From assembly GCA_050695155.1 (NCBI GenBank), contig JBOGTO010000180.1:1-64000 (forward strand): a stretch of 64,000 nucleotides of DNA, in the 5' to 3' direction. Made by a program: the position numbers and the translations under genes. The number at the start of each line of letters is the position of its first letter. Position 1 is the first letter of the stretch. This DNA is from Ktedonobacteraceae bacterium. Lineage in GTDB: Bacteria; Chloroflexota; Ktedonobacteria; Ktedonobacterales; Ktedonobacteraceae. Under the pieces are notes generated by a model that did no database searches, was not told the DNA's origin, and saw only the letters and a program-made list of their open reading frames with translations. This document shows positions 2,350 to 18,857 of this stretch, one piece after another.

Positions 2350-2685
2350 CTATGAATTATCCTCTAAAACAGCTTGAATTTTAACTGCCAGATCAGGAAT
2401 GCCAACTGTGGCTGTTTCCCAGACTATGTCCAGGTCGATCCCGTCATAATGATGAATCAGTTTGTTGCGCATATTAATCATGGATCGCCAGGGTATCTCT
2501 GGATGGAGATTTCTGAATTCTAGCGGTAAGGCGCTGGCGGCTTCACCCATAATTTGAAGATAGTAGACAATCGAATTTTGTGTCTCTTCCTCCCGATCGA
2601 ATCGGCGGCGTCCTCTTTTTGTATATTTACCGATTTTCGTAATAGCTGTCTGAATATGTTGGATTCTTTCAAGCGAATCTGTCAT
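2350..2685 (-). CDS. hepT: HepT-family (DUF86) toxin of a HepT/MntA type II TA pair
   Basis: 111 aa. Contains the R-x4-H-x-Y motif (RNKLIHHY). Its start overlaps the stop of the upstream nucleotidyltransferase ORF by 4 bp. Confidence 0.75.
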
Positions 2686-3404
2686 AGAGGTATTGCCTCT
2701 TTCAAAACGCGCTCTCGAATACGATTATGCAGTCCTTTTTCGGTTACTATATCTACATCGTGACCAAGCAGTTCCTGGAGATCAAATAAGAGTTCGCTAA
2801 GGTCAAACAGGGTTCTTCCAGGCTCAACATCCACTAATAGATCAATGTCGCTGGCTGTATCAGCCTCTCCACGCGCAACAGAACCAAAAATACGCACATT
2901 CGACACGCCATACTTGATCGCAGTGCGAAGTATCTCGTCACGCTTTGCCTTTAATAACTCAGCATAAGGTTTTGCCATCTCACCCCTGAGAAAAGTTTGC
3001 TCGGCGTTACTTCGACTAAACTGTTCCTGGGCTGCCCCTAAAACTGCATCTATTTTATCTTGTAAATTTGGAAGGTCATGCTTCACTATGTTCCATAAAG
3101 CATCTGTATCAATTTCAAGATAATAATGCGTAATTAAGCTTTGAAAGTCAGCTAATTGCTTCCAGGGTATTTCTGGGTGATGATCCTTGAAATTCTGAGG
3201 AATTGTATTTGTGGCTTCACTGATTGTTTGAAGGTAATAGATGGCTGAAAGTTGAACCTCTTCTTCAGTTTCAAACCGTTGTTTACCCTTTTTCGCGTAC
3301 TCAGTGATTCTTATAATGGCGTTTTGTATGCGACGTAGCTGCTCGGTTGAGTCTCTCATTGCTAGAAGTCTCCAAATCAGTGACACGTGTTCCTCCGCTC
3401 TCAA
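2682..3404 (-). CDS. mntA: Single ORF combining an N-terminal HepT-like DUF86 domain with a C-terminal MntA-type minimal nucleotidyltransferase. The probable HepT-domain start is Met at 3359; an internal Met at 2978 could initiate a stand-alone MntA.
   Basis: The C-terminal ~98 aa carry the NTase signature [19 protein letters not shown]. The N-terminal ~125 aa are a clear paralog of the downstream HepT ([15 protein letters not shown] vs [15 protein letters not shown]) but read FQSLITHYY in place of R-x4-H-x-Y. There is no stop between the two domains. Confidence 0.6.
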
Positions 3405-3461
3405 TGCCAGAATTATAACCGATAGCAGGGCTGCCCGTCAAAAAAGCCGCTTCCCGGCATA

Positions 3462-3490
3462 TGGTCAGGTGTGGCGTGACGTGCTATAAT
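3462..3490 (+). promoter_or_regulatory. Putative sigma70-type promoter for the nuoB-like operon, with -35 tggtca, a 17-nt spacer and an extended -10 tgcTATAAT
   Basis: Perfect TATAAT at 3485-3490 with a TG dinucleotide at 3482-3483. Lies in the divergent intergenic region about 110 bp upstream of the NuoB start. Confidence 0.3.
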
Positions 3491-3601
3491 TACGACAGGT
3501 TAGGAGACGGAAAGCGCCGACTCCTTTCTTATATTACATTCCGCGAATATATCAACCGGGCAACAGGTGCTGCTAAACCTTTGCATGGGAGTTATTACAT
3601 T

Positions 3602-4201
3602 ATGAGCAGCGATACGAAAACCAATGGGAATAAGCGCGTCACTGGGCCGCGCAAGCCTGTGCCAATTGTTATGGCAAAAGGCCCCCATGAGTACACTCCT
3701 GGCGATCAGGAGTTGCCAGTTCAGCTTACCAGCTTTATAGACATGCTGCAATGGGCGCAGAACTGGGCGCGTTCAAAATCTGTCTGGCCGCTTGGCTATG
3801 GCCTGGCCTGCTGCGCTATTGAAATGATGGCGAGCGCGCAGGCCCATTACGACCTCTCGCGTTTCGGCTCGGAGGTATTCCGTTCCAGCCCGCGCCAGGC
3901 CGATCTGATGATCGTGGCCGGCACGGTTTCGGTCAAGATGGGGCCGCGCCTGCGCCTGCTGTGGGAGCAGATGCCCGATCCCAAATGGGTACTCAGCATG
4001 GGCCAGTGCGCGAACTCCGGCGGCGAATTTTATGATAGCTACTATACCGTCCAGGGCGTCGATACTATCGTGCCGGTGGACATATATGTGCCTGGCTGTC
4101 CGCCACGTCCTGAAGCGTTGATCGAGGGCATTCTCAAGCTGCGCGAGAAAATCGCCAAACAGGGCTTGAAAGTACGTGGCGAGAAGGAAATCGAGGTGTA
4201 G
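3602..4201 (+). CDS. nuoB: NADH-quinone oxidoreductase subunit B (NuoB/Nqo6-type)
   Basis: Canonical [18 protein letters not shown] and [11 protein letters not shown] motifs that ligate the N2 cluster. Start chosen at MSSDTK (3602) with a GGGAG RBS; the tabulated ORF start at 3461 is probably an artefactual extension. Confidence 0.85.
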
Positions 4202-4204
4202 TCT

Positions 4205-4945
4205 ATGCGTGGAATTCTGAGCGGAATGGGGCTAACCTTTAGCCACCTCTTCCGGCCTAAAGTAACGCGATATTATCCCTATGAAAAGCCAAAGCTTCCC
4301 CCGCGTAGTCGTGGATTGATCCAATTGATCGCGGAGGAAGGATTGAAAGCCGACTATAACCTGAAGTGTGAGGCCTGCTTGCTCTGCGAAAAAGCCTGTC
4401 CGCCACGCGCCATTACCATCGAGTTTGAGCCGATGCACGTCTGGAAAGATCGTCCCTGGTTCGTCTCCTACGTGCGCGAGGGGGCTGAGAAGTTTGGCAC
4501 ACGCAAGATGCCCCCGGCTACAGGCGCATCCAAGGCGGGTTACTATATACAGCGCTACTCTGAATACGCGATCGAATACCATGACAAGCCAGTGGCTCCC
4601 TGCATGGCTATGCCGGTAAAGGATTACCTGGAACCAGAAATAGACCTGGGCCAGGTTGACGATTTGCTGGCGAACTGGTCGCAGGAAGCCGGAGCGCTCT
4701 CCTCGCTGCTGGATGCCGTGATGGATATTTATGGCTACCTGCCTTTGTCGGCAGCCAAGCGTATTGTGCAAGCGCGCGGCGTGGACTTGAGCGATATATT
4801 TGGTATCGCCACCATGAGTCCTAAATTCAAGCCCGCTCCCGCCGTCAAAGGCATCAAGCGCGACGACCAACCTGTACGTGGACTATCACCCGCGACACGC
4901 GGTGTGTATGGCAACATTAATCATGTGAGGCAGCCCAATGCCTGA
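4205..4945 (+). CDS. Chimeric protein: a NuoI-like N-terminus with a single 4Fe-4S motif, fused to a NuoE-like N-terminal helical region that lacks the thioredoxin-like 2Fe-2S part
   Basis: Residues ~8-100 align to NuoI (GMGLTFSHLFRPKVTRYYPYEKPKLPPRSRG, then one CxxCxxCxxxCP motif, CEACLLCEKACP). Residues ~150-225 resemble the NuoE N-terminus (LLDAVMDIYGYLPLSAAKRIVQARGVDLSDIFGIATMSPKFK). The stop overlaps the next gene by 8 bp. Confidence 0.55.
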   Translation: MRGILSGMGLTFSHLFRPKVTRYYPYEKPKLPPRSRGLIQLIAEEGLKADYNLKCEACLLCEKACPPRAITIEFEPMHVWKDRPWFVSYVREGAEKFGTRKMPPATGASKAGYYIQRYSEYAIEYHDKPVAPCMAMPVKDYLEPEIDLGQVDDLLANWSQEAGALSSLLDAVMDIYGYLPLSAAKRIVQARGVDLSDIFGIATMSPKFKPAPAVKGIKRDDQPVRGLSPATRGVYGNINHVRQPNA

Positions 4946-6269
4946 ATTTGATGCAACTTATCGTGTAATACGGCGGCGAGGCGAGCCTGATGTGCGCTCG
5001 CTCGAAGCATACCGCCGCGTCGGGGGCTATGCCGCCCTGGAAAAAGCTATTCGCGAGCAGACCCCCGATCAGGTTGTCCAGCAAGTGCTGGATGCGCAAC
5101 TGCGCGGGCGCGGCGGCGCTGGTCGCCCGACCGGGGAAAAGTGGCTTCTTGCGCGCCGGCAGGATGACGACACGCGCTATGTGATCTGTAACGCCTATGA
5201 TGCCGACGAACGTTCGTGGGCAGCGCGTACCCTGTTGGAGCGCAACCCCCACCAGGTCATAGAGGGCATCGTGCTGGCAGCCTATGCCGTAGGCGCATCG
5301 GAAGCCTATCTTTTCACACGCAGCCTTTATCTTGAGGGAATAGCCTCGGTGCAGCGAGCTTTGCAGGAAGCGTTAGACGCCAATCTCGTCGGACGCGATA
5401 TTTTAGGAACCGAGTTCAACTGCACCATCAATGTCGTAGGCGTCGATATTGGCTTCATGGGTGGCGAAGAAACCGTGCAAATCGCCATGATTAAGGGACG
5501 ACGCGGTATGCCCGAACAGCGACCACCTTATCCCGCCCAGGCTGGCCTGTGGGATCGACCCACCGTTGTCAACTCGATTGAAACACTGGCGAATGTTCCT
5601 ATTATCGCGCGCGATGGAGCGCAAGCCTTTACCAGCGTAGGAACTACCACGACCAGCGGCACTAAAGTGCTGACCGTCTACGATTATGTGCCTGATAGCG
5701 AGCCGCGCGTGGTTGAAGTGCCGTTCGGGGCCACGCTGCGCGAAATACTGCGTCACGCGGGCTATAACCGCGCCGAAAGCGAACTGCGCGGGATCGTCGT
5801 AGGAGGCGCTGAGGGAGGCGCGTTGCCGACCTCCTTGCTGGACACTCCGTTCGATTTTGACGCGCTGGAAGAAGTTGGCGTCATTGTGGGTTCCGGTATT
5901 ATCGAGTTGCTGCCGGCCAATACCTGCATGGTTGCCTGGGCGATGGAGCGCAGCCGCTACCTTAGCAAAGAGTCTTGCGGGAAATGTGTGCCGTGTCGTC
6001 TCGGTATGAAACGTATCACCGGGCTGCTGGAAGGCATCATTAGCGATCTAGGCGTCAATAACGACCTGGATGTGCTGGATGAATTTGCTAAATATGTCCC
6101 GGATGGCTCGCTGTGCGGCTTTGGCATACAGGCACCCAATTCGCTCAAAACGGCTAAACTCTACTGGCTCGAACATTTCCAGATGCACATCATGGAACAA
6201 CAGTGTCCAACCGGCACCTGTATTCCCGTGCGCGCGCATCGTTTTGTGACAAAACATGTCTTGCCCTAG
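4938..6269 (+). CDS. Divergent NuoF-like (51-kDa flavoprotein family) subunit
   Basis: Overall collinear with NuoF, including the C-terminal N3-cluster motif ESCGKCVPCRLG and later LCGFG. The glycine-rich loop reads GRGGAGRPTGEKW and the acidic region reads CNAYDADERS, where I recall GGAGFPTG and NADEsEPG in canonical NuoF. Confidence 0.7.
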   Translation: MPEFDATYRVIRRRGEPDVRSLEAYRRVGGYAALEKAIREQTPDQVVQQVLDAQLRGRGGAGRPTGEKWLLARRQDDDTRYVICNAYDADERSWAARTLLERNPHQVIEGIVLAAYAVGASEAYLFTRSLYLEGIASVQRALQEALDANLVGRDILGTEFNCTINVVGVDIGFMGGEETVQIAMIKGRRGMPEQRPPYPAQAGLWDRPTVVNSIETLANVPIIARDGAQAFTSVGTTTTSGTKVLTVYDYVPDSEPRVVEVPFGATLREILRHAGYNRAESELRGIVVGGAEGGALPTSLLDTPFDFDALEEVGVIVGSGIIELLPANTCMVAWAMERSRYLSKESCGKCVPCRLGMKRITGLLEGIISDLGVNNDLDVLDEFAKYVPDGSLCGFGIQAPNSLKTAKLYWLEHFQMHIMEQQCPTGTCIPVRAHRFVTKHVLP

Positions 6270-6318
6270 AAACTGTAGGGGCGTATTTTTCGCGTCCTGT
6301 GCCTACGAGAGGTAATAT

Positions 6319-8727
6319 ATGGCAATATCAATCCGAGATAATCTCTCTCCCATTGTGCATGATGCGCAGGCAGTGATGCCGCGCAATGAGACCGGACATC
6401 CCGGCTTCACGCTGACCATCGATGGGAAAACTGTGACAGCTTATGAGAGTCAAACCCTGCTGAGCGTGGCAGACGACAACGGCATTACCGATATTCCCAA
6501 TATGTGTAATGACGGGAAGTTGGAGCCAACGGCTGCCTGTCGCATGTGCCTGGTACATATCGAGGGCGTGAGCCAACCGCTTCCTTCGTGTACTACTGCG
6601 GCTCTGCCCGGTATGGTAGTGCGGACGAATTCGGATGAGCTTTTCCACATTCGTCGCACCAATCTGGAATTGCTGCTGTCGGACCATAACGCTTATTGCC
6701 AGCCGCCGTGCCAGGTGGATTGCCCGACGCATATCGACATCCCCGGCTACCTGGAACTGATCGCCAAAGGCTCGATGAAGGAAGCGGCTCGCCTAGTCAA
6801 AGAGGTGCTGCCATTCCCCTATATCCTGGGTCTGACCTGTCCCGCGCCCTGCCAGAAAGCCTGCCGCCGCGCGTTGGTGGAAGAGGAAATCGCCATCTGC
6901 CGTATGCACGGCCACGCCGCCGAGACCTGCCTGCTCGATCCGCCGCATCCTTTCCCGAAGGACCCGTCAACGGGCAAGAGAATCGCTATCATCGGCTCTG
7001 GCCCCGGCGGTTTGACATGCGCCTACTACCTGGCGCTGAAAGGCCATTATTGCAAAGTTTTCGAGATGCAGCCGCAGCCCGGCGGTATGCTGCGCTATGG
7101 CATCCCAGAGTACCGTTTACCGAAAGATGTGATGGACCGCGAACTCCAGCACGTCTGGGATTTAGGCGTAGACCTGCAATTAAACGTGAAACTTGGCGTG
7201 GATTTCACCATCGACGATCTGTTCGCGCAGGGCTACGATGCTATCTACCTCGCCATCGGTGCCTGGACGAGTAACCCGTTAAGCGTTCCCGGCGAAGATG
7301 CGGAAGGCGTAATCAACGCCATCGCTTTTCTGGCCGAAAAGGTTGAGGGCAAACCCGTTCCCGTTAAGGAGGGGCGCGAGGTAGTGGTGTTTGGCGGTGG
7401 ATTTACCACCTTCGACTGCACGCGCACCTCGTTGCGCCTGGGCGCGAAAGTGCATACCGGCTATCGCCGCTCCGTCAAAGAGATGACCGCGACGCCAGAA
7501 GAAATCGAAGACGCCGATGCTGAAGGCACCGAGTTGATGTTCTACGTCCAGCAGACGAAGGTCATTGTCGAGGGCGGCAAAGTAGCGGGCATCGAATGTA
7601 TCAAAAACAAACTGGGCGAGCCGGATGCCAGTGGTCGCCGCCGACCTGTGCCTATTCCCGGTTCAGAGTTCGTGATTAAGTGCGATACCATCATTCCCGC
7701 CTTCGGTCAGAATCCAGATAAAGATGTGCTGGATGAGAAGTCCGGCGTAAAATGGAGCAAACGCACCACTATTGAGACCAACCCGTTTAACTTTATGACG
7801 GACCGCTACGGCGTCTTTGCCGGTGGCGATGCTCAGATGGGCGCGAAAACTATCATCGAATGTGTTGCTCAGGGCAAGCTTGGCGCGCGTTCGATGCATG
7901 CCTTCCTCAATGGTGAAGACATGAAAGAAGTGGCCCATCGCCTGGAACTGGAAGAGCGCAAACCCGACCTCTTCGATATTGTGCCGTACAAGCCGGTTGA
8001 GCCAAAGGTCAAGATGCCGATGCTGCCCTACGAGCAGCGCAAGCGCAGTTTCGAGTTGATCGAGCTGGGCTACCTGCAAGAGCAGGCGGAACGCGAGTCG
8101 GCTCGCTGCTTGCAGTGCGCGTGTCCGGCAGCCGGGCAGTGCGACCTGCAAAAGTACAGCATCGAGCATGGGCTGGCGGATAATCGCTTCCATGATGGCG
8201 AGCCGAGCGACTACCACGACTACGAGTTTGACATGTCGCACAGCTTCATCCTGCGCGATCCCAACAAGTGTATCAACTGCACGCAATGTGTGCGCGTCTG
8301 TCATGACGTGATCGGCCCTGACTGCTACGGTATGTTCGGTAAGGGCTTCGATACCATCGTCTCCACGCCGTTCAACGTCAGCCTGCATGATACCGATTGC
8401 GTCTCCTGTGGGGCGTGCGTGCAGGTCTGCCCGACCGGCTCGCTGATGATGGCCGAACGCACACTCACACGTTACGCCTTCGCGCTTGATCGCTGCATCT
8501 TCTGCGGCGACTGCGTAGAGGTCTGCCCTCACGGCGCGCTCGGCGAGACCCCCAACTTCGAGCTATCGTTCTTCAACCGCTTCGGCGAAGATGTCACGCT
8601 GGAGAAGGGCGACCTGGCCGTTGCCCCCAACTACCTCGTGCGCCAGCGCCTGCCACGCGGCAAAAAGGATGTACCCGTGATGAGCCCGCTGGTGCGGCCA
8701 TTGCCGGCGAGAGGAATCAGGGAGTAA
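6319..8727 (+). CDS. Multidomain oxidoreductase: NuoG-type N-terminal 2Fe-2S domain, then a GltD-like NAD(P)H-dependent flavin oxidoreductase, then C-terminal 4Fe-4S ferredoxin motifs
   Basis: N-terminal C-x11-C-x2-C-x13-C (PNMCNDGKLEPTAACRMCLVH...SC). GltD-family Fe-S region DIPGYLELIAKGSMKEAARL...CPAPCQKAC. Dinucleotide-binding motif RIAIIGSGPGGLTCAY. C-terminal CINCTQCVRVC, CVSCGACVQVCP and CIFCGDCVEVCP motifs. Confidence 0.75.
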   Translation: MAISIRDNLSPIVHDAQAVMPRNETGHPGFTLTIDGKTVTAYESQTLLSVADDNGITDIPNMCNDGKLEPTAACRMCLVHIEGVSQPLPSCTTAALPGMVVRTNSDELFHIRRTNLELLLSDHNAYCQPPCQVDCPTHIDIPGYLELIAKGSMKEAARLVKEVLPFPYILGLTCPAPCQKACRRALVEEEIAICRMHGHAAETCLLDPPHPFPKDPSTGKRIAIIGSGPGGLTCAYYLALKGHYCKVFEMQPQPGGMLRYGIPEYRLPKDVMDRELQHVWDLGVDLQLNVKLGVDFTIDDLFAQGYDAIYLAIGAWTSNPLSVPGEDAEGVINAIAFLAEKVEGKPVPVKEGREVVVFGGGFTTFDCTRTSLRLGAKVHTGYRRSVKEMTATPEEIEDADAEGTELMFYVQQTKVIVEGGKVAGIECIKNKLGEPDASGRRRPVPIPGSEFVIKCDTIIPAFGQNPDKDVLDEKSGVKWSKRTTIETNPFNFMTDRYGVFAGGDAQMGAKTIIECVAQGKLGARSMHAFLNGEDMKEVAHRLELEERKPDLFDIVPYKPVEPKVKMPMLPYEQRKRSFELIELGYLQEQAERESARCLQCACPAAGQCDLQKYSIEHGLADNRFHDGEPSDYHDYEFDMSHSFILRDPNKCINCTQCVRVCHDVIGPDCYGMFGKGFDTIVSTPFNVSLHDTDCVSCGACVQVCPTGSLMMAERTLTRYAFALDRCIFCGDCVEVCPHGALGETPNFELSFFNRFGEDVTLEKGDLAVAPNYLVRQRLPRGKKDVPVMSPLVRPLPARGIRE

Positions 8728-9465: not shown

Positions 9466-10860
9466 ATGGCATGGCAGCGCAGTCAGCGTAGTCTTCGTTT
9501 TCCTGATGGCTTTTTGTGGGGAACGGCATCCTCTTCCCATCAATGTGAGGGTGGCAACACCAACAATCAGTGGTATCGCTGGGAGCAGGCGGGGCGTGTG
9601 TTTACGGGCGAGACAAGCGGGGATGCCGCGAACTGGTGGCGGGAGGCTGAGCAGGATTTCAGCCTGGCGGAACAGATGGAGAACAATGCTCTGCGCCTGA
9701 GCATCGAATGGAGCCGCGTCGAGCCGTCCGAGGGGTATTGGGATAGCGCGGCCATTGATCGCTATCGCATGATGCTGACCGACCTGCATAGACGGCATAT
9801 GAAACCCCTGGTCACGCTGCACCACTTCACCGACCCTCTGTGGTTCGCGGATCGCGGCGGCTTTACGAAGGTCGAGAATATACGCTACTTTGCGCGCTAT
9901 GTATCCTATGTGGTGGAGAAACTGCAAGACCTGTGCGACTTCTGGATTACCATTAACGAGCCAAATGTATATGCCATGCTGGGTTACTTATTAGATGAGT
10001 ATCCTCCGGGCGAGCAAGATTTGATGCGAGCCTTGCAAGTATTGCGCAATCTGATGCAGGCGCACGTTGAAGCTTTCTATGCCATCTATCGTATCCAGCC
10101 GCAGGCCGAGATTGGCTATTGCCTGAATTACCGCCTCTTTGACTCTGCCAGCCCGCTTTCACCACTGGACCGCGCAGTCGCGGGAATACAGGATACGTTC
10201 TTCAACTGGGCGACACTGCGAGGCGCGGAAACGGGAACATTCACCTTCCCATTAAACTTGCTGCTCGCGCCCATCAAACGCGCGGCGGGGGCGCGCGATT
10301 TTCACGGCGTCAACTACTACACGCGCGATCTGGTGCGTTTCGACCTCACACGGCCTACCGAAATATTCGGGCGGCGTTTCACCCTTCCTGGCGCGGTTCG
10401 CAACGATCCGGGTATGAAGAACAACTTTGGCGAGATTTACCCGGCTGGCCTCTATCGCGTACTCAAGTCGGTCTATCAAAAAACGCGCGGCAATAAGCCC
10501 CTGTACGTCACCGAAAATGGATTTAGCGATACGCTCGATGATCGTCGTCCGCGCGCCATCCTGGAACACCTGGCGATGATACACCGCGCCATCAGCGAAG
10601 GTATCCCCGTGCGCGGCTATCTACACTGGACGCTGGTGGACAATTTCGAGTGGACAGAGGGCTGGGGTGTGCGCTTTGGTCTGATAGAACTCGACCAGCA
10701 GACCCAGGAACGCACGCCGCGCATCAGCGCCAGCATGTTCGGCGAAATCTGCCGCGCCAACGCTATCACCGAAACAATCGTCGCCCGTTATGCGCCAGAT
10801 GCGATGGAGAGCATTTTTGGAACGAGTATCAATGCGGTTGGTCAAGCCTCAGTTACATAA
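9466..10860 (+). CDS. Glycoside hydrolase family 1 beta-glucosidase
   Basis: FPDGFLWGTASSSHQCEGG N-terminal signature; acid/base TINEPN and nucleophile YVTENG motifs. ATG at 9466 with a GAGGAG RBS is preferred over the TTG at 9457. Confidence 0.85.
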   Translation: MAWQRSQRSLRFPDGFLWGTASSSHQCEGGNTNNQWYRWEQAGRVFTGETSGDAANWWREAEQDFSLAEQMENNALRLSIEWSRVEPSEGYWDSAAIDRYRMMLTDLHRRHMKPLVTLHHFTDPLWFADRGGFTKVENIRYFARYVSYVVEKLQDLCDFWITINEPNVYAMLGYLLDEYPPGEQDLMRALQVLRNLMQAHVEAFYAIYRIQPQAEIGYCLNYRLFDSASPLSPLDRAVAGIQDTFFNWATLRGAETGTFTFPLNLLLAPIKRAAGARDFHGVNYYTRDLVRFDLTRPTEIFGRRFTLPGAVRNDPGMKNNFGEIYPAGLYRVLKSVYQKTRGNKPLYVTENGFSDTLDDRRPRAILEHLAMIHRAISEGIPVRGYLHWTLVDNFEWTEGWGVRFGLIELDQQTQERTPRISASMFGEICRANAITETIVARYAPDAMESIFGTSINAVGQASVT

Positions 10861-12748
10861 ACTGCCATAGTTTGATGGAATGATCTTCGCCGCCAGTGGC
10901 AAGTATGCGTAACTCTGGTCGCGCAGCCATGGCGGTCACGCGGCCTTGATGTGCTTGAATTAAGAGATGTTGTTGGTTGTGTTTAGTATTCCAGCAGTAA
11001 AGTATCCCACTTTTATCTGAATAAACAATCTCGTTTTTCAATGCGATCGCATTGCCAGCGGGCATAGGTAGCTGAGTAGGAAGTGGTAAATGGATACCAG
11101 AATTCAGATTGAGCAAGATCAAATCCCCTTTTTTGGTCAAACAAAGCAGGTGTTGTGCGTCGAAAACCAGTAACTTTACGATTTGACCAGCATCTTCTAT
11201 TTGCGTTTTCCAAACCAGTTGTCCGTTTTTAAGGTTCCATAAACCTACCAACCCATTATCCGCTCCTGCTGCGAGCATGTCACTCTCTGAAAGATAGAGG
11301 AGCGACCAGACTGGCCCGCCAGGATGTCGTATGCTCCGTATTTGACGACCACCCGGCAATTCCCAGATACGTATTGTCCCGTCGCGCGAACCAGATAGCA
11401 GAACCCTATCATTCATTGCCAGGGTAATAGTAAGAATGATGTCGCTGTGTCCGATTATAGTACGTTGTAGACGCCTTTGTTCTATATTCCACAAACGGAT
11501 ACTTCGATCCCAGGAACCTGTAGCCAGGGTCTTACCATCAAAGGTGATAGCTGAGGCCCAAATCGTGCGCGTGTGTCCTGGCACCTCAACTATGGCCTGT
11601 GGCGTTCCTGGTTTCCAGAGAGAAATGGTGCCGAGAGCACTCGAGATAACTTGACTGACATCAGGTAAAAGAGCAATGGTATCAACTGCGGTGAAGAGAT
11701 TTTTCCACTCTGTGAGCAAACGGAGCGTTCCAGACCCTGGATGTGCGGAGGTTTTTTTATCGATGTTGGCTGTAGTATATACGGACATACCCGGCAACGT
11801 CTCAGTTTGCAGAACAGGCCCTGTCCTTATAAATTCCTGTTCCTCGTTGTAATGCGCTGGCAGGGTCGGCATTTGAGTTGGGGAAACTGATGTTGGTTCT
11901 TTAGACCATTCTATTGTCGTGGCGCGCGTTGATTGTACTATTGCTTGCTTTGCTGCTTCCGCGAATTCTCGCGCCGTTGTGAAACGTTGAGAGGGTTCTT
12001 TGGCGAGCGCGCGTTGAATAACAGGTTCTAATGCTTCCGGGGCATTTGCATTGTATTCTTTGATTGGCCTGGGCCTCTCTTGCAAGTGCTGGAGCATTAT
12101 ACTTCCCCAGCCATCACCAGTAAAAGGCGGCGTGCCTGCTACTATCTCATAAAACATAATACCCAGCGCGTAAATATCAGTCTGTGCGCAAATATTTTGA
12201 CCCAGCCACTGTTCCGGTGCCATATATAATGGAGTGCCTACATAACCGTGAGTAGATTGTGCTGTATTGTTTATTAACTTCGCAACACCAAAATCGGCAA
12301 GCAAGGGCCAATTGTTCTCACGAAGAAGCACATTGGCAGGCTTAATATCACGATGAATAATAGATCGTTGATGCGCGAAATCCAGGGCTGACGCCAGTTG
12401 TTCCAGAAGGTTTATTGTTTCCGCCAGCGACCATGTGCCGCTTTTCAGGCGCTCTTTCAGAGTACCACCTGCTATATAAGGCATAACAAGATAGGCAATC
12501 TCATCCTGATAGCCGTATTCATATAATGTCACAATATGAGGATGTTCTAATGCTGCAAGCGCCTGTGCCTCTTGTTTAAAACGCTGAATAAAATTCGGAT
12601 CTTCATCATATCCTGTCTGAATGACCTTAACTGCCACCTTACGGTTCAATAAAGGTTGAATTGCCAGATAAATTTCGCCCATGGCTCCCTTACTAATGAA
12701 CTGTATCAGTTCACAAGAACCAAGAGTACGATGAAGGAGATTCGACAC
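10853..12748 (-). CDS. Ser/Thr protein kinase with C-terminal WD40 repeats
   Basis: VAVKVI Lys, HRDIKPANVLL catalytic loop, DFGVAKL, APE motif. The C-terminal ~300 aa carry WD repeats (GHSDIIL...SGSRDGTIRIWEL; HSIKLWQF). Confidence 0.85.
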   Translation of the reverse strand: MSNLLHRTLGSCELIQFISKGAMGEIYLAIQPLLNRKVAVKVIQTGYDEDPNFIQRFKQEAQALAALEHPHIVTLYEYGYQDEIAYLVMPYIAGGTLKERLKSGTWSLAETINLLEQLASALDFAHQRSIIHRDIKPANVLLRENNWPLLADFGVAKLINNTAQSTHGYVGTPLYMAPEQWLGQNICAQTDIYALGIMFYEIVAGTPPFTGDGWGSIMLQHLQERPRPIKEYNANAPEALEPVIQRALAKEPSQRFTTAREFAEAAKQAIVQSTRATTIEWSKEPTSVSPTQMPTLPAHYNEEQEFIRTGPVLQTETLPGMSVYTTANIDKKTSAHPGSGTLRLLTEWKNLFTAVDTIALLPDVSQVISSALGTISLWKPGTPQAIVEVPGHTRTIWASAITFDGKTLATGSWDRSIRLWNIEQRRLQRTIIGHSDIILTITLAMNDRVLLSGSRDGTIRIWELPGGRQIRSIRHPGGPVWSLLYLSESDMLAAGADNGLVGLWNLKNGQLVWKTQIEDAGQIVKLLVFDAQHLLCLTKKGDLILLNLNSGIHLPLPTQLPMPAGNAIALKNEIVYSDKSGILYCWNTKHNQQHLLIQAHQGRVTAMAARPELRILATGGEDHSIKLWQFM

Positions 12749-12819
12749 AATTGACCTCTCAACTCTATCTTGTGTATATTAGTAATAGAACGAATGATAG
12801 TACAAAATTAATAAATGTG

Positions 12820-12848
12820 TTGACTTATATTGTGTTCGATGTTACAAT
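12820..12848 (+). promoter_or_regulatory. Putative sigma70 promoter with -35 TTGACT, a 17-nt spacer and -10 TACAAT, upstream of the DUF4126-like gene
   Basis: ttgacttatattgtgttcgatgttacaat sits about 50 bp upstream of the ATG at 12901, in an AT-rich divergent intergenic region. Confidence 0.3.
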
Positions 12849-12900
12849 CGCTATGCTTCGATTTTAGATAGTTGTTTTAGTATGAAAGCCTGGTAGTGCG

Positions 12901-13980
12901 ATGGAAAGTCTTGGAACTTCGTATGGTTTAGCCCTTGCAGCAGGCATTAATGCCTATTTACCGCTTCTTTCTATCTCCATCTCTGTGCGCTGGTTTCATT
13001 TGTTTACTATCAGTAAAAACTTTGCATTTCTTACCCAGAATGGATTTATCATTGCTCTCGTTATTCTGGCTGTTATCGACATTGTAGCAGACAAGATACC
13101 ATTTGTCGATAGCATTTGGGATAGTATTCATACTATAGTGCGTCCAATTTCCGGGGCCATAGTTGCAGGCGCAACGGGCGAAAGTAGTACTTCTCTTGGA
13201 TTGCCGGTAGTTCTCCTACTTGGAGCCACATTAGCGTCGATGAGCCATATTACAAAGGCTGTGACACGTTTGAGCGCCTCTGTCTCGGCCGGAGGCTGTT
13301 TAACACTGGCTTTGAGTCTTGTAGAGGATGTTGTAGTCATTGTCGCAATTCTGCTTGCACTCTTTGCCCCTGTCATTATGCTGGCGTTTTCGGCAATCTT
13401 TATTGTCCTTTTTGTGATATTTGCCCCTTTGCTATTTAGCGCATTACGTTACCGGTTACGTGTTGCTGCTTCAACCTTTTCCTGGTTTATCCATTCCTAC
13501 TTCTGGCGCGGTTCAGAGTCTAGTTCTCTGGACTTTATGCTCGATCTGTCAGATGCCGAGAGGTCCCAGTTGCTCCAGATCATGCCACCCGAAACTGCGT
13601 TATTGGGAGGCGCTCGCGTACAGTGGATCAGGCGGCTAGATGGGCGAGGATTATGGGGACGGCGGCGCGTTGCGCTTTCTACCTGGTTTATTGTTTCCGA
13701 AGGCGCTGTTATCATTCTCTGTGGAACGCGCCCCCATTTATCTCAGGTTGTGTTTTTCAACGATGTGCAGGCCCTGGCCCTCGATCAAGGATTATTAATG
13801 GGTTCTTTGCGGCTCCTCACCTTGAAAGGGCAGGCCATAAACTTTGCGATTTTGCGTGACTCTTTAGGTGATGCAATCGAATTAGTAGAAGTTCTACATA
13901 CGCGCCATCATCTTCCCTCTAATGCAACGACTCGCACAGGCTCTATACGCACTCGCTCTGTAGGGCCGCAACGTATTTAG
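12901..13980 (+). CDS. Polytopic membrane protein with a DUF4126-like N-terminus and a C-terminal region resembling a bacterial PH (bPH_2/DUF304-like) domain
   Basis: GLALAAGINAYLPLL start followed by 4-5 hydrophobic helices. The C-terminal soluble region LLGGARVQWIRRLDGRGLWGRRRVALSTWFIVSEGAVIIL is PH-like. Confidence 0.55.
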   Translation: MESLGTSYGLALAAGINAYLPLLSISISVRWFHLFTISKNFAFLTQNGFIIALVILAVIDIVADKIPFVDSIWDSIHTIVRPISGAIVAGATGESSTSLGLPVVLLLGATLASMSHITKAVTRLSASVSAGGCLTLALSLVEDVVVIVAILLALFAPVIMLAFSAIFIVLFVIFAPLLFSALRYRLRVAASTFSWFIHSYFWRGSESSSLDFMLDLSDAERSQLLQIMPPETALLGGARVQWIRRLDGRGLWGRRRVALSTWFIVSEGAVIILCGTRPHLSQVVFFNDVQALALDQGLLMGSLRLLTLKGQAINFAILRDSLGDAIELVEVLHTRHHLPSNATTRTGSIRTRSVGPQRI

Positions 13981-14010
13981 ATACATTTTTATTTTTCCTA
14001 ATATTTCCTA

Positions 14011-15012
14011 TTGGAAAGGAGTTTGGAGTTGAGCGGATTTTTTGACAAAGTAAAGCATACGACCGGTCTTGGCTTAAATCAAGATGAACTCTACAATCGG
14101 GCATTCGCTAAAGGAGTGTTGCTTGGGAACTTCAAGGATGCGGCTGATATCTTTGAGAAAGCTGCCAGGAAGTTTACAGAGACTGGCGACCAGATGATGA
14201 TGGCCCAGGCGACGGCCAACTCCTTGCTGTATCGTTATCTGGCAACCGGTGATGACAGGATGATTCAACAGTTGATCCAGGCGTTGAGTGTCCTACCTCA
14301 GATTGAGGAGATCAAATCGCAAACAGAGACGATGCCGGTCGCGCCACTTTGCGCTGAACTGGATTGCCGCATGGTCGAAACTGCCATCAAACAGGCGCAG
14401 GATAACATGGTAAAATTGCGTGATCTGCACAGGTATGCGCGAGATAAGTTTCAAGCGATTCTACGCAATCAACTACTGACCTACAGTTATGTACCCGAAC
14501 CCGATGGACATAATGAGAAAACAGAGGCGCGCTATTTCTATCATAGTGGAATGTCCTCTTTCTGTGAAGCGATGATAAAAAAAGATAGCGACCCTGCCGC
14601 AGCCTCTGATGATCTCGCGTTAGCGGGGCAATCCTTCCGGCGTTGCAATGATCAAAAATGGATGCAGAGCGCCGCAACGTTGTTGGAAAACTGGCGAGTT
14701 TCAAGAACGTGCTGGATGTGCCATAGGGAAATGCAGGGATTTGAGCTGCACTTTTCAATGTGCCAGGCTACTGTCACCCCCTACACAAAATATATTCTCG
14801 ATCGCTTAAAACAAGATGGCTCTTCTGTCAATCTGGAGAGTGGCGAAATCGCTGTCTGTACGCCTTGCGGGTCAATGGTAACAATAAAGGCGGAAATGGA
14901 AGCAGACAAGGTCCGGCAGGAATTGGGTGCCAAAATAGATGTACTGATTGGCGCGATGCAGTCACTCGAAAATCGGGTTCGTCATCTTGAGCGCAATTCT
15001 CATCACCATTAA
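14011..15012 (+). CDS. Conserved hypothetical protein with a C-terminal Cys4 zinc-ribbon-like motif (CWMC...C...CTPC)
   Basis: 333 aa. No known catalytic motif. Sits 30 bp downstream of the membrane gene and 17 bp upstream of the next gene. Confidence 0.5.
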   Translation: MERSLELSGFFDKVKHTTGLGLNQDELYNRAFAKGVLLGNFKDAADIFEKAARKFTETGDQMMMAQATANSLLYRYLATGDDRMIQQLIQALSVLPQIEEIKSQTETMPVAPLCAELDCRMVETAIKQAQDNMVKLRDLHRYARDKFQAILRNQLLTYSYVPEPDGHNEKTEARYFYHSGMSSFCEAMIKKDSDPAAASDDLALAGQSFRRCNDQKWMQSAATLLENWRVSRTCWMCHREMQGFELHFSMCQATVTPYTKYILDRLKQDGSSVNLESGEIAVCTPCGSMVTIKAEMEADKVRQELGAKIDVLIGAMQSLENRVRHLERNSHHH

Positions 15013-15029
15013 AGGAGAGCGTATCCTGT

Positions 15030-16898
15030 ATGGAAAAACAAGATATTCTCGATATTCTGGATTCGCTCGATTTACAGATATCGATGGGGAAAATTGATCA
15101 GGCGACCTATAATGACCTTAGACAGAAGTGGGTACAGAAGCTGCAAGTATTGGAAGCTAGTGTTGCTGCTGGTGCTACAGGGTCTCTTGCCGGTTCGTCT
15201 GGTAGATCAACATCAGGTCAATTTGCTGGATTCTCATCGTCGGCCCCACCATCGCCACCGGCAATTGAGGTGCTGGCTTGTCCGATGTGCGCTGCTCCAG
15301 CAGATATACATGGTATACAGGACCTGACCAGGCCCATAGAGTGTCCTCACTGCTGTACTGTTTATACATTTCGTCAGAGCCAGGATAATGCTCAACATCT
15401 CAAACAGGAGTTAAAGGCCTGGCTCGATCAAATGATCGTGGGGAGCGGCTATAATGGCGCTGGCGGTTCCAGCAGTATTGACGCCAATGCCCGGCGCTTC
15501 ATCTTTACCGAGAGCCTTTATCCTGCGCTAAAAAAAGATATCGACCGGCATCTGGAAGACCTTGAATATGCCCCGGAAGCTCCGATGGTCCAGCTAAAAG
15601 TGTTAGTAGGGTTCGAGGAATACCAGCCAGGCTCACAACTTTTAGCTATTGGCAGAGGAGAGAACCAATGGCTGAAGACGCTCACCACGCGGGTCTCCGC
15701 GCCGCAGTTGCAGGACTTTGCTGTAACACAAGATGACAAACTGAAAATGCTTCAACTTCAGTTCCGCGTCATGAGCTTAATCTATTACGCTAATATCGCT
15801 AATCACCTTACCGCTGCTACGGTTGCCTCCTATCAGGCGATACATCAGAACCTCCAAGCTCTGCAAAAAGACTATCGAGAACATGCACAAAATGTTGTAG
15901 ACGAGGGTTATCGCTCTTACATTGTGGCCCTGGATGCGCGTATCACCGGCGCAATGCTTCTGCTTGATCTGCTGATTGCAACATTTGAGAAAGGAAGAGG
16001 CGTAGCTCCTGAAGCTGTTCTCGCCCAGCTTGATCGTGCGATAGCGCAACTCACCCAGTCAGAGCAACAGGCTTTAGCATGTATGTATAATCCACTTTAT
16101 ACGGTTCCTCTACAGCAAGGTATACAAAAAGACCTCATGGTTGCGCGTATTTTCCAGGCGATAATCAAATGCTACGAGGTAGCCACTCGCTTACAGTCGG
16201 TAGACTTTGAGCCGTTCTATGAAGATTTGATGAGCTATGCCGCAACGCTTGGAAGCAATCAAACTACCCACCAGTTACTTGGTCTTATTCAATCCATCAG
16301 TCGTTTGCTGTCCGCTCGCGCTGGAGATGAACCTCTCCCCGTTCTTGTCGACTGGAGCTGGATTGAAGGGACGATTGAGGCTAATCGATATAAGCCTACC
16401 TTTGGCGCTGCCGAAACCGTTGGGACTGTAGGTTATCATTTTCATCCTTACTGGGTGGCAACGCTGAATTATGCTGAGAAAAGTGGCATCATTTTCAAGT
16501 CGGGAACTGGGCGTGAAGCGCTTATTCTTGTGGATGCTACTACCACGAATTCACCCATTGTTGGGCATATACTGGTCAGCGATCCTCTTTTGCCAGTGAT
16601 CCAGCAAGCGACCCACACCTTCAATTTCCTGGATAAACGAGTGATGGCACTTCCCGCCTTACTCTCACAAGATATGGCAGAAAGAACGATGAAATCCTAC
16701 GCGAACCAGCACACGCGTGAGTTGGGAGCGACGATTGTCAAAATGATTGGCCTGCTCTATCTTCCAACGGCCTTTGTGCGTTATGCCGGTAAGAATGGAA
16801 GCCGTGAGATGGTGATAGGCCGTTTGAATTTTGTGAATAAAAATTTGACAGGCGCACTGTTGCAAACGCAACAGTTCTTGCAAAAATATGGAGCTTAA
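15030..16898 (+). CDS. Conserved hypothetical 622-aa protein with an N-terminal SHOCT-like helix, a low-complexity linker, a zinc ribbon (CPMCAAP...CPHC) and a large uncharacterised C-terminal domain
   Basis: N-terminus ILDILDSLDLQISMGKIDQATYNDLRQKW resembles the SHOCT consensus. Four Cys in a C-x2-C-x20-C-x2-C arrangement. Confidence 0.55.
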   Translation: MEKQDILDILDSLDLQISMGKIDQATYNDLRQKWVQKLQVLEASVAAGATGSLAGSSGRSTSGQFAGFSSSAPPSPPAIEVLACPMCAAPADIHGIQDLTRPIECPHCCTVYTFRQSQDNAQHLKQELKAWLDQMIVGSGYNGAGGSSSIDANARRFIFTESLYPALKKDIDRHLEDLEYAPEAPMVQLKVLVGFEEYQPGSQLLAIGRGENQWLKTLTTRVSAPQLQDFAVTQDDKLKMLQLQFRVMSLIYYANIANHLTAATVASYQAIHQNLQALQKDYREHAQNVVDEGYRSYIVALDARITGAMLLLDLLIATFEKGRGVAPEAVLAQLDRAIAQLTQSEQQALACMYNPLYTVPLQQGIQKDLMVARIFQAIIKCYEVATRLQSVDFEPFYEDLMSYAATLGSNQTTHQLLGLIQSISRLLSARAGDEPLPVLVDWSWIEGTIEANRYKPTFGAAETVGTVGYHFHPYWVATLNYAEKSGIIFKSGTGREALILVDATTTNSPIVGHILVSDPLLPVIQQATHTFNFLDKRVMALPALLSQDMAERTMKSYANQHTRELGATIVKMIGLLYLPTAFVRYAGKNGSREMVIGRLNFVNKNLTGALLQTQQFLQKYGA

Positions 16899-16918
16899 TG
16901 CTCTAAGGGAGGTATATC

Positions 16919-18304
16919 ATGGGGTTATTGCACTTTCTAGCCGATCGTGGCATCAAAATGATGGACAATACGGAGAAGGATCTGAAAGCTATCGGGCAGA
17001 GGTTAGGCTACATGCCTCTATCCTGGCGACAGGTCATTATGACTCATCCCGATAAAGATGGATTGCTGTGGCGTCTTCCTGATCCCCAGGTTCCGATGGC
17101 TAGCTCCTTGAGTCGCATACAATCGATACTAGTTTCTGAATATGAGCGAGCGATCGTACTCAAGGATGGTATGTTGACTGAGCAGGTAGTTCTCCCGCCT
17201 GGCCTTTATGATATTAGTCGCACTGTCAACGTGCGCGGCCAGATTGAAATCATCTGGACGACTACCAGTGAATTTCAGTTGCGCTGGGGCATTCCCGATG
17301 TTATCACTGGCGACCGTGTAAGCGTGGGCGCAAGCGGTTTCTTCAGCGCGGCTATTATTGATCCCGAAACTTTTTTACGCAATGTTGGAAGTAGTCAGCA
17401 GGTCTTCAAGAAGGAAAACATGGCTACCTTTGCCAAACCAGAAGTAGATTCGCTGTTGCGTGAACTCATTGCTCATAAAACCGTGATGGAATTTCAGCTT
17501 GCTCGACAAGAATTTATCGGTGCTGCGCGAGAGGCTCTCCAGCCCATTTTTGAGCGCTGGGGTCTGGAATTCCGTGGTCTGACCATTGAAAACCAGAGGA
17601 TTCCGGAAAAATTCCGTGAAGCCGCAGAACGGCGCACGATTGTGAGTATGGAGAAGGAAGCGCAAATCGTGGCGGCCACAGAAGATGTGAACCTGGCGCA
17701 ATTGGAAGCGCAGAAACAATACTACTTATCTCAAGCTGATGCCAGCAAGTACTATATCACTGGAAGTGCGGAAGTCGAGAACATGCGTCGTCAACTGAGT
17801 ATTGGATTGGACCCTCTCAAGCTGAAGATGGCAGCAGCAATGGAAATTCTTGCAGCCACACCGAGCGAAGGCTCATTGGTGGATGGCCGCGTTCAGGTGA
17901 TGAACTACCTTTCCGGGTCCCTCAATACCGTCACTGGCGGTGTACCCCCAACTTCTGCTGACACTGCAAATGCTGCTTTAGGACAACCAATTGGCCTTCC
18001 TGCCCCAGCAACCGCCGGTGGGGTGTCTGGACGCGGCCCTAATACAGGGCTTTCGTCAGATTCTGCTAACACCGGTGGATTCGCCCCTTTCATCCCTCCC
18101 GATGCTTCAAATCCGTTAGGTACAGGCGCTTTAGCTGCGCAAGTTTCGCTATCTCAGCCAACAACAACCGGGGGTATGACTCGTGAAAAAATTAAGGAGA
18201 TGCTTGATAAACTTGATGAACGCCTTATCGCGGGAGAAATAACCGAACAGAAGCATTCGGAGCTTTATGATAGGCTACAAAAAAAGCTGAGTGAGTTGCC
18301 ATAG
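16919..18304 (+). CDS. SPFH/band-7 domain protein with a Pro/Gly-rich linker and a C-terminal SHOCT-like motif
   Basis: Core collinear with the HflK/C-stomatin SPFH domain (EYERAIVLKDG..., WGLEFRGLTIENQRIPEKFREAAERR...EKEAQI). C-terminus GEITEQKHSELYDRLQKKL is SHOCT-like. Confidence 0.6.
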   Translation: MGLLHFLADRGIKMMDNTEKDLKAIGQRLGYMPLSWRQVIMTHPDKDGLLWRLPDPQVPMASSLSRIQSILVSEYERAIVLKDGMLTEQVVLPPGLYDISRTVNVRGQIEIIWTTTSEFQLRWGIPDVITGDRVSVGASGFFSAAIIDPETFLRNVGSSQQVFKKENMATFAKPEVDSLLRELIAHKTVMEFQLARQEFIGAAREALQPIFERWGLEFRGLTIENQRIPEKFREAAERRTIVSMEKEAQIVAATEDVNLAQLEAQKQYYLSQADASKYYITGSAEVENMRRQLSIGLDPLKLKMAAAMEILAATPSEGSLVDGRVQVMNYLSGSLNTVTGGVPPTSADTANAALGQPIGLPAPATAGGVSGRGPNTGLSSDSANTGGFAPFIPPDASNPLGTGALAAQVSLSQPTTTGGMTREKIKEMLDKLDERLIAGEITEQKHSELYDRLQKKLSELP

Positions 18305-18424
18305 TTCGATTTGAGCGGACTGCGAATGGCTCATGAGGTGTAATAAATACGGAATCTCCGGTTATTCGCACAAATGAGAATCCATAAACGCAAGTTGGAG
18401 AAGCGAATACTTCTCCAACTTGCT

Positions 18425-18670: not shown

Positions 18671-18857
18671 GTTGCTTTACTCATTCTCTGATCTTGTAGT
18701 AAGTAGTATCAGGTTCCATACTTGATAACTCATGTGCATGATATTCCTCACAATAAGAGGTGTCAAGGAAAATTTCATCCTTTAATTACCGTATATCATT
18801 GGCTACGCTAGATGTAATCATTTCCTGACAATGGAAGTATTACCAGGTTCACCTTTA

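Follow-up and report, generated by a model that had tools for sequence, protein, structure and literature searches.

The 11-subunit core of respiratory complex I (NDH-1, NuoA-N) is established with several alternative input modules: FpoF in Fpo, the NuoE/F replacements of Campylobacter and Helicobacter, and the ferredoxin-accepting NDH-1 of cyanobacteria (see also PMC3144371). A further candidate is described here, a cluster of four genes in a stretch of 64,000 nucleotides from a Ktedonobacteraceae bacterium (contig JBOGTO010000180.1, positions 1 to 64,000; the whole stretch is referred to as the window). The four genes most likely encode the electron-input and connecting part of a variant complex I of a 'split-NuoI' type. 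As judged from its sequence, NuoI is complete but split over two polypeptides, the products of ORF2 and ORF4 (ORF, open reading frame), rather than truncated.

Two further systems are needed for comparison. NfnABC of Caldicellulosiruptor saccharolyticus (PDB 9BOV, PMC11829005) and StnABC of Sporomusa ovata (PDB 8OH5, PMC10482914) represent the electron-bifurcating Bfu family. In NfnABC, electrons run from NADPH through flavin adenine dinucleotide (FAD), A7, A6, A3, A2 and A1 to the flavobicluster [B1-FMN-C1] (FMN, flavin mononucleotide), which is the minimal bifurcation site. C1 is the [2Fe-2S] cluster of the C-terminal domain of NfnC, the clusters B3/B4 in the C-terminal domain of NfnB feed ferredoxin, and the Fdh-like tail of NfnA (A4/A5) is a dead-end branch (PMC11829005). 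In Mbx-like operons, NuoI gives way to a GltD-related flavoprotein (Degli Esposti 2015, PMC4758237). The searchable literature, which leaves most subscription journals outside, yielded no account of NuoI in two pieces or of nuo operons with an Nfn/Stn-type module, so its silence is not proof; the split-NuoI variant is apparently undescribed so far.

The four ORFs are intact, co-directional and located on the plus strand (3461-4201, 4205-4945, 4938-6269 and 6319-8727 in the ORF call for the 64-kb window). A preliminary description had recognized them as complex-I-like, and its domain assignments hold. It had also reported two start/stop overlaps: the one between ORF2 and ORF3 is real and spans 8 nucleotides (nt; 4938-4945), while nuoB and ORF2 are separated by a gap of 3 nt (4201/4205). 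The features of the cluster are listed below (aa, amino acids; pLDDT, predicted local distance difference test). Constraint is given, here and throughout, as the fraction of invariant positions across 45 Ktedonobacteraceae genomes.

3602..4201, plus strand: nuoB (ORF1), 199 aa from the probable start ATG 3602; the mechanical ORF begins at 3461
3809-3814, 4007-4009 and 4097-4099, plus strand: N2 ligands of NuoB, C70/C71, C136 and C166, respectively
4205..4435, plus strand: ORF2 aa 1-77, NuoI N-terminal half (amphipathic N-terminal arm and Cys motif 1), matching TYKY and NuoI model positions 1-63
4367-4402, plus strand: Cys motif 1 of ORF2, CEACLLCEKACP (C55/58/61/65)
4436..4624, plus strand: ORF2 aa 78-140, poorly conserved linker containing C133 (22% invariant; AlphaFold2 pLDDT ~30)
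4625..4945, plus strand: ORF2 aa 141-246, N-terminal helical bundle of the NuoE/NfnC/StnA type (aa 141-215) and conserved tail, without the thioredoxin-like 2Fe-2S domain
4938..6269, plus strand: ORF3, NuoF/NfnB-core-like subunit of 443 aa (Complex1_51K and N3 domain)
5106-5144, plus strand: altered FMN/NADH motif of ORF3, GRGGAGRPTGEKW
5187-5219, plus strand: altered motif of ORF3, CNAYDADERSW
6319..8454, plus strand: ORF4 aa 1-712, NfnA/StnC-type body (full ORF4, 802 aa, 6319-8727), comprising a [2Fe-2S] domain (aa 31-110, Fer2_4), Fer4_20 with 2x[4Fe-4S] (aa 111-205), a GltD/NfnL-type FAD and NAD(P)H domain (aa 206-535, Pyr_redox_2, 'YRR' motif), a Cys4 cluster (aa 597-608) and a dicluster ferredoxin (aa 640-712)
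8455..8727, plus strand: ORF4 aa 713-802, NuoI C-terminal half (TRYAFALDRCIFCGDCVEVCPHGALGETPNFELS) and tail, with Cys motif 2 at C726/729/732/736

ORF2 is a chimera of 246 aa. Residues 4-77 align with residues 30-99 of TYKY/NuoI (E=1e-11), and residues ~140-215 with the N-terminal helical domain of NuoE/HydC/StnA (best matches 9bov_C, 8oh5_A and 8a6t_C); the latter bundle is predicted with confidence when ORF2 is modeled alone in AlphaFold2 (pLDDT 74-90, aa 141-210). A single CxxCxxCxxxCP motif is present. The thioredoxin-like [2Fe-2S] domain of NuoE (N1a), which is full in distant chimeras, is absent from ORF2, together with any Cys residues for such a cluster. The preliminary description had correctly read the N-terminal part of NuoI with one motif and the lack of the 2Fe-2S half, but the second NuoI motif, which it regarded as missing, sits at the C-terminus of ORF4. 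The last 93 aa of ORF4 match the C-terminal halves of NuoI/NdhI/TYKY with E values of 1e-11 to 3e-9, and the top ~35 PDB matches are almost all of the NuoI type. In this region (aa 713-765) the counterparts are residues 104-141 of 176 in TYKY, 89-154 of 163 in NdhI and 85-146 of 182 in Nqo9, and the match takes in the flanking strand TRYAFALDRCIFCGDC and the PNFE(L/F)S signature. The fusion of a 2Fe-2S domain, a GltD-like oxidoreductase and three ferredoxin motifs was rightly recognized in ORF4 (Fer2_4, Fer4_20 and Pyr_redox_2), except that the third motif is specifically a NuoI C-terminal half. No single ORF has both CxxCxxCxxxCP motifs in NuoI context, as NuoI has on one polypeptide.

The two halves were joined in silico (ORF2 aa 1-85 and ORF4 aa 712-802) and scored against the NuoI model TIGR01971 (121 positions). 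The joined sequence aligns in one stretch to model positions 1-111 with 95.4 bits. Scored separately, the N-terminal half covers positions 1-63 (50.8 bits) and the C-terminal half positions 70-111 (41.4 bits), so the halves are complementary and do not overlap; ORF2 alone reaches 47.5 bits, under the cutoff of 113.05. All 8 Cys residues of the two motifs are invariant, those of ORF2 (C55/58/61/65) in distant lineages as well. C133 of ORF2 was considered as a fourth ligand that would rescue a lone cluster and was rejected as a general answer: it is conserved in Ktedonobacteraceae only, and the partner motif is found in ORF4. Nor is there a frameshift hiding the remainder of NuoE, a possibility raised before; only 88 nt separate the NuoE-type domain from the start of ORF3, and the tail encoded there is itself conserved.

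The partner of this split subunit, ORF1, is identified as an unambiguous, bona fide NuoB. It scores 233 bits against NCBIfam PRK06411 (cutoff 116) and 227.8 bits against TIGR01957 (cutoff 142.7), and the solved structure closest to it is Thermus Nqo6 (E=1e-61, ~63% identity). All four Cys ligands of N2 (tandem CC, C and C) are present, in line with the preliminary description, and are invariant in 45+3 homologs. Hydrogenase small-subunit models match ORF1 with E values no better than ~1e-4.

ORF4 aligns from residue ~31 to ~734, end to end, with residues ~6-700 of NfnA/StnC (9bov_A, E=7e-176; 8oh5_C, E=3e-160), and also matches the archaeal NfnA 9n5u_A. PF14691 and PF07992 are found above the gathering thresholds, while the PRK12814 equivalog cutoff is not reached (560.7 vs 916 bits). 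In the case of the NuoG model TIGR01973 the score is 104.9 bits (cutoff 470): the N-terminal Fe-S domains of NuoG are present, its molybdopterin-oxidoreductase-like C-terminal domain is absent, and the GltD domain is inserted. The Cys-rich motifs form a full dicluster (two motifs) and a third, lone motif near the C-terminus. The GxGxxG motif for FAD and the GxGxxx…YRR motif for NAD(P)H are conserved, and 30 ligand Cys residues are invariant.

ORF3 is closest to NfnB/StnB, and aligns only to residues ~108-530 of 584. It has neither the N-terminal thioredoxin domain nor the C-terminal 2x[4Fe-4S] (B3/B4) domain of Bfu B subunits. It scores 341.6 bits against TIGR01959 (cutoff 558.65), and lies under every curated NuoF cutoff. 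The N3/B1 ligands C347/350/353/393 are kept and invariant, and the phosphate loop GRGGAG and GEET are retained, whereas three FMN/NADH-contact motifs are replaced by lineage-specific but conserved versions, GAGR(P/L)TG, NAYDAD and N(S/C/N)(I/V)ET; the substitutions in the glycine-rich loop and the acidic region had been noticed before (GRGGAGRPTGEKW and CNAYDADERSW). Canonical FMN/NADH motifs are found in the NuoF-like proteins of two distant loci, L048 and L049. The NuoF-like subunit is also degenerate in the operon-embedded Limnocylindria type (L055-L058), where Ala takes the place of the second N3 Cys (CGKAVPC) and ANLMGADPT stands in the NADE region, although NuoE keeps its 2Fe-2S domain.

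By these comparisons, the E/F/G-like parts are scored closer to the Nfn/Stn subunits of the Bfu family than to NuoE/F/G of complex I. Shared with NfnABC/StnABC are ORF4 with its NfnL/GltD insertion, the NfnB/StnB core in ORF3 and the N-terminal domain of NfnC/StnA in the ORF2 bundle. The module of the window differs by the lack of C1, the NfnB thioredoxin domain, B3/B4 and the Fdh-like tail, by the added NuoI halves and by the co-encoded NuoB; the dead end A2-A4-A5 appears to be turned into a productive exit to NuoI/NuoB. The likeness to Nfn/Stn without the parts for bifurcation therefore points to Bfu ancestry with no bifurcation or ferredoxin apparatus, and with the Fe-S chain redirected to NuoI/NuoB.

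The cluster is strongly conserved. ORF2 has 722 detectable homologs; the best 120 of the 722, all from Ktedonobacteraceae, cultured Dictyobacter included, are nearly all 246 aa long (two have 239 aa) and show 79-93% identity. A genome scan yielded 47 loci, all from Ktedonobacteraceae or unclassified Chloroflexota, in which the order NuoB-ORF2-ORF3-ORF4 is kept wherever the contig reaches, usually flanked by an isopropylmalate dehydrogenase gene and a beta-glucosidase gene. The Fe-S ligand Cys residues are invariant throughout, in N2 of NuoB, motif 1 of ORF2, N3 of ORF3 and in ORF4. This agrees with the earlier suggestion of a selected, functional assembly, and answers the proposed comparison of synteny in relatives. 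The highest invariant fractions are found for the ORF4 dicluster (93%), the NuoB core and the NuoI C-terminal half (75% each) and Fer4_20 (74%), followed by the NuoI N-terminal half (52-68%), the NuoE-like bundle (36%), ORF3 (30%, the least conserved subunit) and the ORF2 linker. The route NADPH-FAD-FeS-NuoI-NuoB is therefore the most constrained one. In the NuoI N-terminal arm, residues G3, I4, G7, T11, T21, Y24, P25, R36 and G37 are common to the Ktedonobacteraceae and the operon-embedded type.

In a few loci the cluster genes are broken across frames (L021, L039, L045 and L047, mostly long-read metagenome-assembled genomes), and NuoF is broken in L036, L037 and L042, the last from the cultured D. 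kobayashii. Since the neighboring genes are intact, these cases were read as sequencing or assembly frameshifts and not as pseudogenes.

An exhaustive representative search with ORF2 returned more distant full-length relatives, several of which combine the NuoI N-terminal half with a complete NuoE that has the 2Fe-2S Cys residues. In several lineages the homologous modules are embedded in complete nuo operons. The arrangements are given below (square brackets enclose one polypeptide; I_N and I_C, NuoI halves; E_N, the N-terminal part of NuoE; G', NuoG-like protein; Fd, ferredoxin).

L055, L056, L057 (Limnocylindria-type): nuoA-(B)-C-D-H-[I_N::E]-F(~455 aa)-[2Fe2S-GltD-Fd, ~795 aa]
L049: nuoA-B-C-D-H-[I_N::E_N::F]-G'
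L048: nuoA-B-C-D-H-[I_N::E]-HydB-like F
L062: nuoD-H-[I_N::E]-F-G'
L061: nuoH-[I_N::E]-[F::GltD, 1048 aa]-[NuoG-N-like::I_C, 265 aa]-nuoJ-K-L-M-N
L059/L060 (type 2, stand-alone): nuoB-nuoD-[I_N::E_N]-F(404 aa)-G'(806 aa), then a PF02636 methyltransferase gene

In L056 and L057, a single unrelated gene separates the module from the nuoJ-K-L-M-N that come next; nuoB was not among the genes called in L057, and separate nuoI, nuoE or nuoG genes were not found in the L055-L057 operons. The NuoG-like proteins of L061, L062 and L055-58 end with the NuoI C-terminal half. Because this half recurs on the NuoG-like protein while the position of GltD varies, the split NuoI is the unifying feature. When an 11-subunit operon A-B-C-D-H-I-J..N is taken as the recipient, the order nuoH-[I_N::E]-F-[G'::I_C]-nuoJ would be the expected product of an in-frame insertion of E-F-G' into nuoI. 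Two of these loci have further fusions: the L049 protein, encoded at 10001-11824, is a NuoI-N::NuoE-N::NuoF fusion of 607 aa, and the 1048-aa protein of L061 (2076-5222) joins a thioredoxin-like 2Fe-2S domain, NuoF and GltD, and has canonical FMN motifs.

The proteins of the window are closest to those of two Limnocylindria lineages, type 2 (L059/L060) and L050. Identity to type 2 is 76% for NuoB, 62% for ORF4, 42% for ORF3 and 36% for ORF2. The type-2 NuoD is a full NuoD/NdhH homolog with the quinone-site His (GPQHPSTHG) and Tyr (SDY); nuoA/C/H/J-N were not found near the type-2 cluster. The Ktedonobacteraceae arrangement resembles what would be left of a type-2 cluster after loss of nuoD. 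In L050, the chimera P0132, which is the non-Ktedonobacteraceae protein most similar to ORF2 (44%) and likewise has no 2Fe-2S half, abuts nuoH (PF00146, E=4e-35) and precedes the NuoF that comes closest to ORF3 (47%); the truncated type of chimera therefore also occurs beside a membrane subunit gene. A metagenome scan with P0132 returned just a canonical nuo operon (L064) and short fragments. In a search with the outgroup NuoD, the best 120 matches listed were relatives of the Limnocylindria query; they pointed to the type-2 cluster and were uninformative on Ktedonobacteraceae NuoD.

With complex I, the module shares NuoB with the N2 ligands, a complete NuoI sequence with both Cys motifs and, in relatives, a position between nuoH and nuoJ of operons with nuoA-D and nuoJ-N. 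It differs in that the NuoI halves are fused to two subunits, in a NuoG-like protein that has an inserted GltD-type FAD/NADPH domain and no molybdopterin-like C-terminal domain, in the NuoE of the window without N1a and in the altered NuoF motifs. The complex I order A-B-C-D-E-F-G-H-I-J..N contrasts with A-B-C-D-H-[I_N::E]-F-[G'::I_C]-J..N in the relatives, and in Ktedonobacteraceae nuoB alone accompanies the module. In Mbx-like operons, too, a complex-I-like Q module is connected with a GltD-type NAD(P)H flavoprotein, but there the NuoI homolog is substituted and the system is of the Mbx/Mrp type, whereas here NuoI is kept as halves and the module is NfnABC-derived, with NuoE/NuoF-like subunits. 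In HoxEFUYH, a NuoE/F/G-N-like diaphorase and a NuoB-like small subunit are likewise encoded in one soluble operon. Here, in contrast, a true NuoB (233 bits) takes the place of HoxY, and the large subunit of the type-2 relative is a NuoD with quinone-site residues and not NiFe. A Hox-type hydrogenase was rejected because of this NuoB and the absence of a NiFe large subunit in the window.

The cluster is probably best understood, with some reservation, as encoding part of the peripheral arm of a membrane-bound NAD(P)H:quinone oxidoreductase; the genes for the partner subunits are presumed to lie elsewhere in the genome. An NfnABC/StnABC-like cassette (NuoE-like, NuoF-like, and NuoG-N-like with a GltD-type FAD/NADPH insert) would be covalently joined to both halves of NuoI, the N-terminal half in front of the NuoE-like helical domain in ORF2 and the C-terminal half behind the NuoG-like Fe-S domain in ORF4. 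The halves would reassemble beside NuoB as one 2x[4Fe-4S] fold. With NADPH as the presumed donor, the proposed electron path is NADPH, FAD, the Fer4_20 clusters, the dicluster, N6a/N6b (split NuoI), N2 (NuoB) and quinone; the direction is likewise presumed. Quinone would be reduced at the NuoB/NuoD/NuoH site, with NuoD/NuoH encoded elsewhere and the module of the Ktedonobacteraceae docking on them. The NuoF-like subunit would form a side branch via the 2Fe-2S cluster, with an altered NAD(P)H site or a largely structural role in Ktedonobacteraceae.

A more far-reaching combination is proposed only tentatively. In it, an undescribed lineage of complex I would be widespread in soil Chloroflexota, spanning Limnocylindria, Ktedonobacteraceae and others, which arose when an NfnABC/Hox-like E-F-G' cassette was placed in frame into nuoI. 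The N module would then have an origin independent of canonical NuoEFG, and the NuoI halves would attach a GltD-type NADPH dehydrogenase directly to the Q module, giving a proton-pumping NADPH:quinone oxidoreductase. In the reverse direction, it could work as an NADP+ reductase driven by the proton motive force, of use to trace-gas-oxidizing autotrophs. The tandem ORF4 paralogs of Dictyobacter, described below, would be alternative dehydrogenase heads that are swapped on one docking site.

Several observations weigh against a membrane-bound complex. nuoA/C/D/H/J-N were not found within ±10 kb of the cluster in the 47 Ktedonobacteraceae loci, nor in the window, where no other nuo or hydrogenase genes, including nuoC/D/H (as noted in the preliminary description) and a [NiFe] large subunit, are present. 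The rejoined NuoI, with its 95.4 bits, falls just under the curated NuoI cutoff (113.05); the equivalent join from a Limnocylindria operon gives 107.7 bits, also a little under it. AlphaFold2 yields no confident fold for the NuoI half of ORF2 alone (pLDDT ~30), a result consistent with half a ferredoxin fold modeled without its partner, though not proof of it. Given the substitutions at the FMN site, ORF3 may or may not still bind FMN or a nucleotide. The progressive loss towards the lineage of the window, first of the NuoE 2Fe-2S domain and then of nuoD, could equally reflect release from a membrane complex. Finally, cave Ktedonobacteria are stated to have a nuo complex, at the level of a KEGG module (PMC13374853). 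As ORF2 and ORF4 would not be recognized as NuoI, NuoE or NuoG, this statement suggests that a canonical complex I is also present; with its own NuoB and NuoI there, the cluster would be a paralogous module with uncertain docking. Such a module may share NuoC/D/H and the membrane arm, or act on its own. The KEGG orthology tables in the supplements of PMC13374853 gave no matches.

The strongest competitor, which we regard as unlikely but worth serious consideration, is an autonomous soluble NADPH-dependent Fe-S flavoenzyme composed of NuoB, the split NuoI, the NuoF-like and the NfnA-like proteins, without a membrane arm. N2 of NuoB would be its terminal cluster and would reduce a soluble acceptor, by analogy with a Hox-type diaphorase and its small subunit. 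Such an enzyme would fit the stand-alone position of the cluster in all 47 loci and in the window, that of the type-2 relative, and the stepwise loss of the N1a domain and nuoD; moreover, the reported nuo module of Ktedonobacteria (PMC13374853) would leave room for a separate enzyme. It fits less well with the high conservation of NuoB (75% invariant; ~63% identity to Thermus Nqo6) and the retained N-terminal arm of NuoI. In known complex I structures, NuoB and this arm serve contacts with NuoD and NuoH. The closest relatives, furthermore, include a nuoH-adjacent form (L050) and one with a NuoD in which the quinone-site residues are retained (L059/L060), and a soluble enzyme that ends in a lone NuoB is not known to have been described. 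The idea of a soluble diaphorase recruiting NuoB, raised in the preliminary description, is therefore less supported than the membrane-bound variant, as homologous modules lie inside complete nuo operons of several other lineages.

The same description had also suggested an electron-bifurcating type of module, and here the ancestry is borne out while the function is not. Among solved structures, NfnABC (9BOV), StnABC (8OH5) and an archaeal Nfn-Bfu (9N5U) come closest to ORF3, ORF4 and the C-terminal part of ORF2. Yet a Bfu-family bifurcating transhydrogenase of the NfnABC/StnABC kind, working with NADPH, NAD and a low-potential acceptor, is highly improbable: the domain bearing the C1 [2Fe-2S] cluster is absent from ORF2, ORF3 has neither the B3/B4 C-terminal nor the thioredoxin N-terminal domain, its FMN-site residues are altered, and a NuoI half pointing to NuoB stands where the Fdh-like tail would be. 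A decaying or mis-assembled nuo remnant, with the chimera made by a frameshift or a sequencing error, is refuted by conservation and hardly deserves credence in spite of the unusual composition and the apparent frameshifts in a few long-read loci (L021, L039, L045, L047), because the four intact genes are syntenic in 47 Ktedonobacteraceae genomes, ORF2 has 246 aa and 77-93% identity in >100 clusters (cultured Dictyobacter among them) with invariant ligand Cys, and the fusion joints are common to distant lineages.

If the proposed variant of complex I is real, the 11-subunit core would have gained a nucleotide-oxidizing module by a second, independent route. A single in-frame insertion into nuoI would explain both the gene order and the two fusion joints, which bears on the modular assembly of complex I. 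The complex would be fed by NADPH via the FAD/GltD domain and would couple NADPH directly, forwards or backwards, with the quinone pool and the proton motive force; the soil Chloroflexota that carry it are abundant and known to subsist on atmospheric H2 and CO. A split 2x[4Fe-4S] ferredoxin fold acting as a two-point staple between subunits would be an unusual protein architecture, and it is directly testable since cultured Dictyobacter carry the genes. Annotation pipelines name the proteins of the module 'hypothetical protein', 'ferredoxin', 'NAD(P)H-dependent oxidoreductase subunit E' or 'glutamate synthase small subunit', so genome reconstructions would score complex I without NuoI, NuoE and NuoG in the split-NuoI lineages.

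Cultured Dictyobacter have two to three tandem full-length ORF4 paralogs (L016, L017, L019, L023 and L042; ~12100-19760 in locus coordinates). Within the same genome, the copies are 99-100% identical in the docking half (linker, dicluster and NuoI C-terminal half) and in Fer4_20, but identity drops to 78-83% in the FAD/NAD(P)H domain. Copy 1 has the nucleotide motif 'YRRGR' and copy 2 has 'YYRTR'. Across species, the identity is 94% between first copies, 91% between second copies and 86% between copy 1 and copy 2. This pattern looks like an old duplication followed by concerted evolution of the docking half, and the copies may be interchangeable dehydrogenase heads with different nucleotide preference.

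The start of nuoB is most likely the ATG at 3602 (199 aa) and not position 3461, as previously given. Homologs from the 47 genomes are conserved only from ~aa 45 of the long ORF, the ATG is preceded by GGGAG at 3588-3592, and a promoter-like site falls inside the longer ORF:

3462..3490, plus strand: promoter-like site TGGTCA-17-TATAAT with an extended -10 (10/12 match, by consensus match only), inside the long ORF from 3461

Two ORFs are located on the minus strand between the isopropylmalate dehydrogenase gene and nuoB (2350-3404). By eye, they resemble a HEPN/DUF86 and a nucleotidyltransferase protein and could form a toxin-antitoxin-like pair, a resemblance read from the letters only. The pair is full in only some related genomes (L005) and left as remnants in others (L002, L039), so it is a variable insertion beside the conserved cluster.

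In the type-2 loci L059/L060, the gene directly after the cluster (15535-16638) is a PF02636 Methyltransf_28 gene (E=1.6e-54). This family is that of NDUFAF7/MidA, the assembly factor methylating the NuoD homolog in mitochondrial complex I. By eye, the usually methylated Arg appears as Gln in the type-2 NuoD; cyanobacterial NdhH has Arg at the aligned position. In L056, the G' gene and nuoJ flank a gene (14793-16175) for an NAD(P)H-binding protein of 460 aa of the NmrA/epimerase type. The protein shares its broad fold family with NDUFA9, the 39-kDa accessory subunit of mitochondria, and is conserved neither in L055 nor in L057. The largest ORF of the window encodes 2072 aa and is located on the minus strand at 26156-32374.

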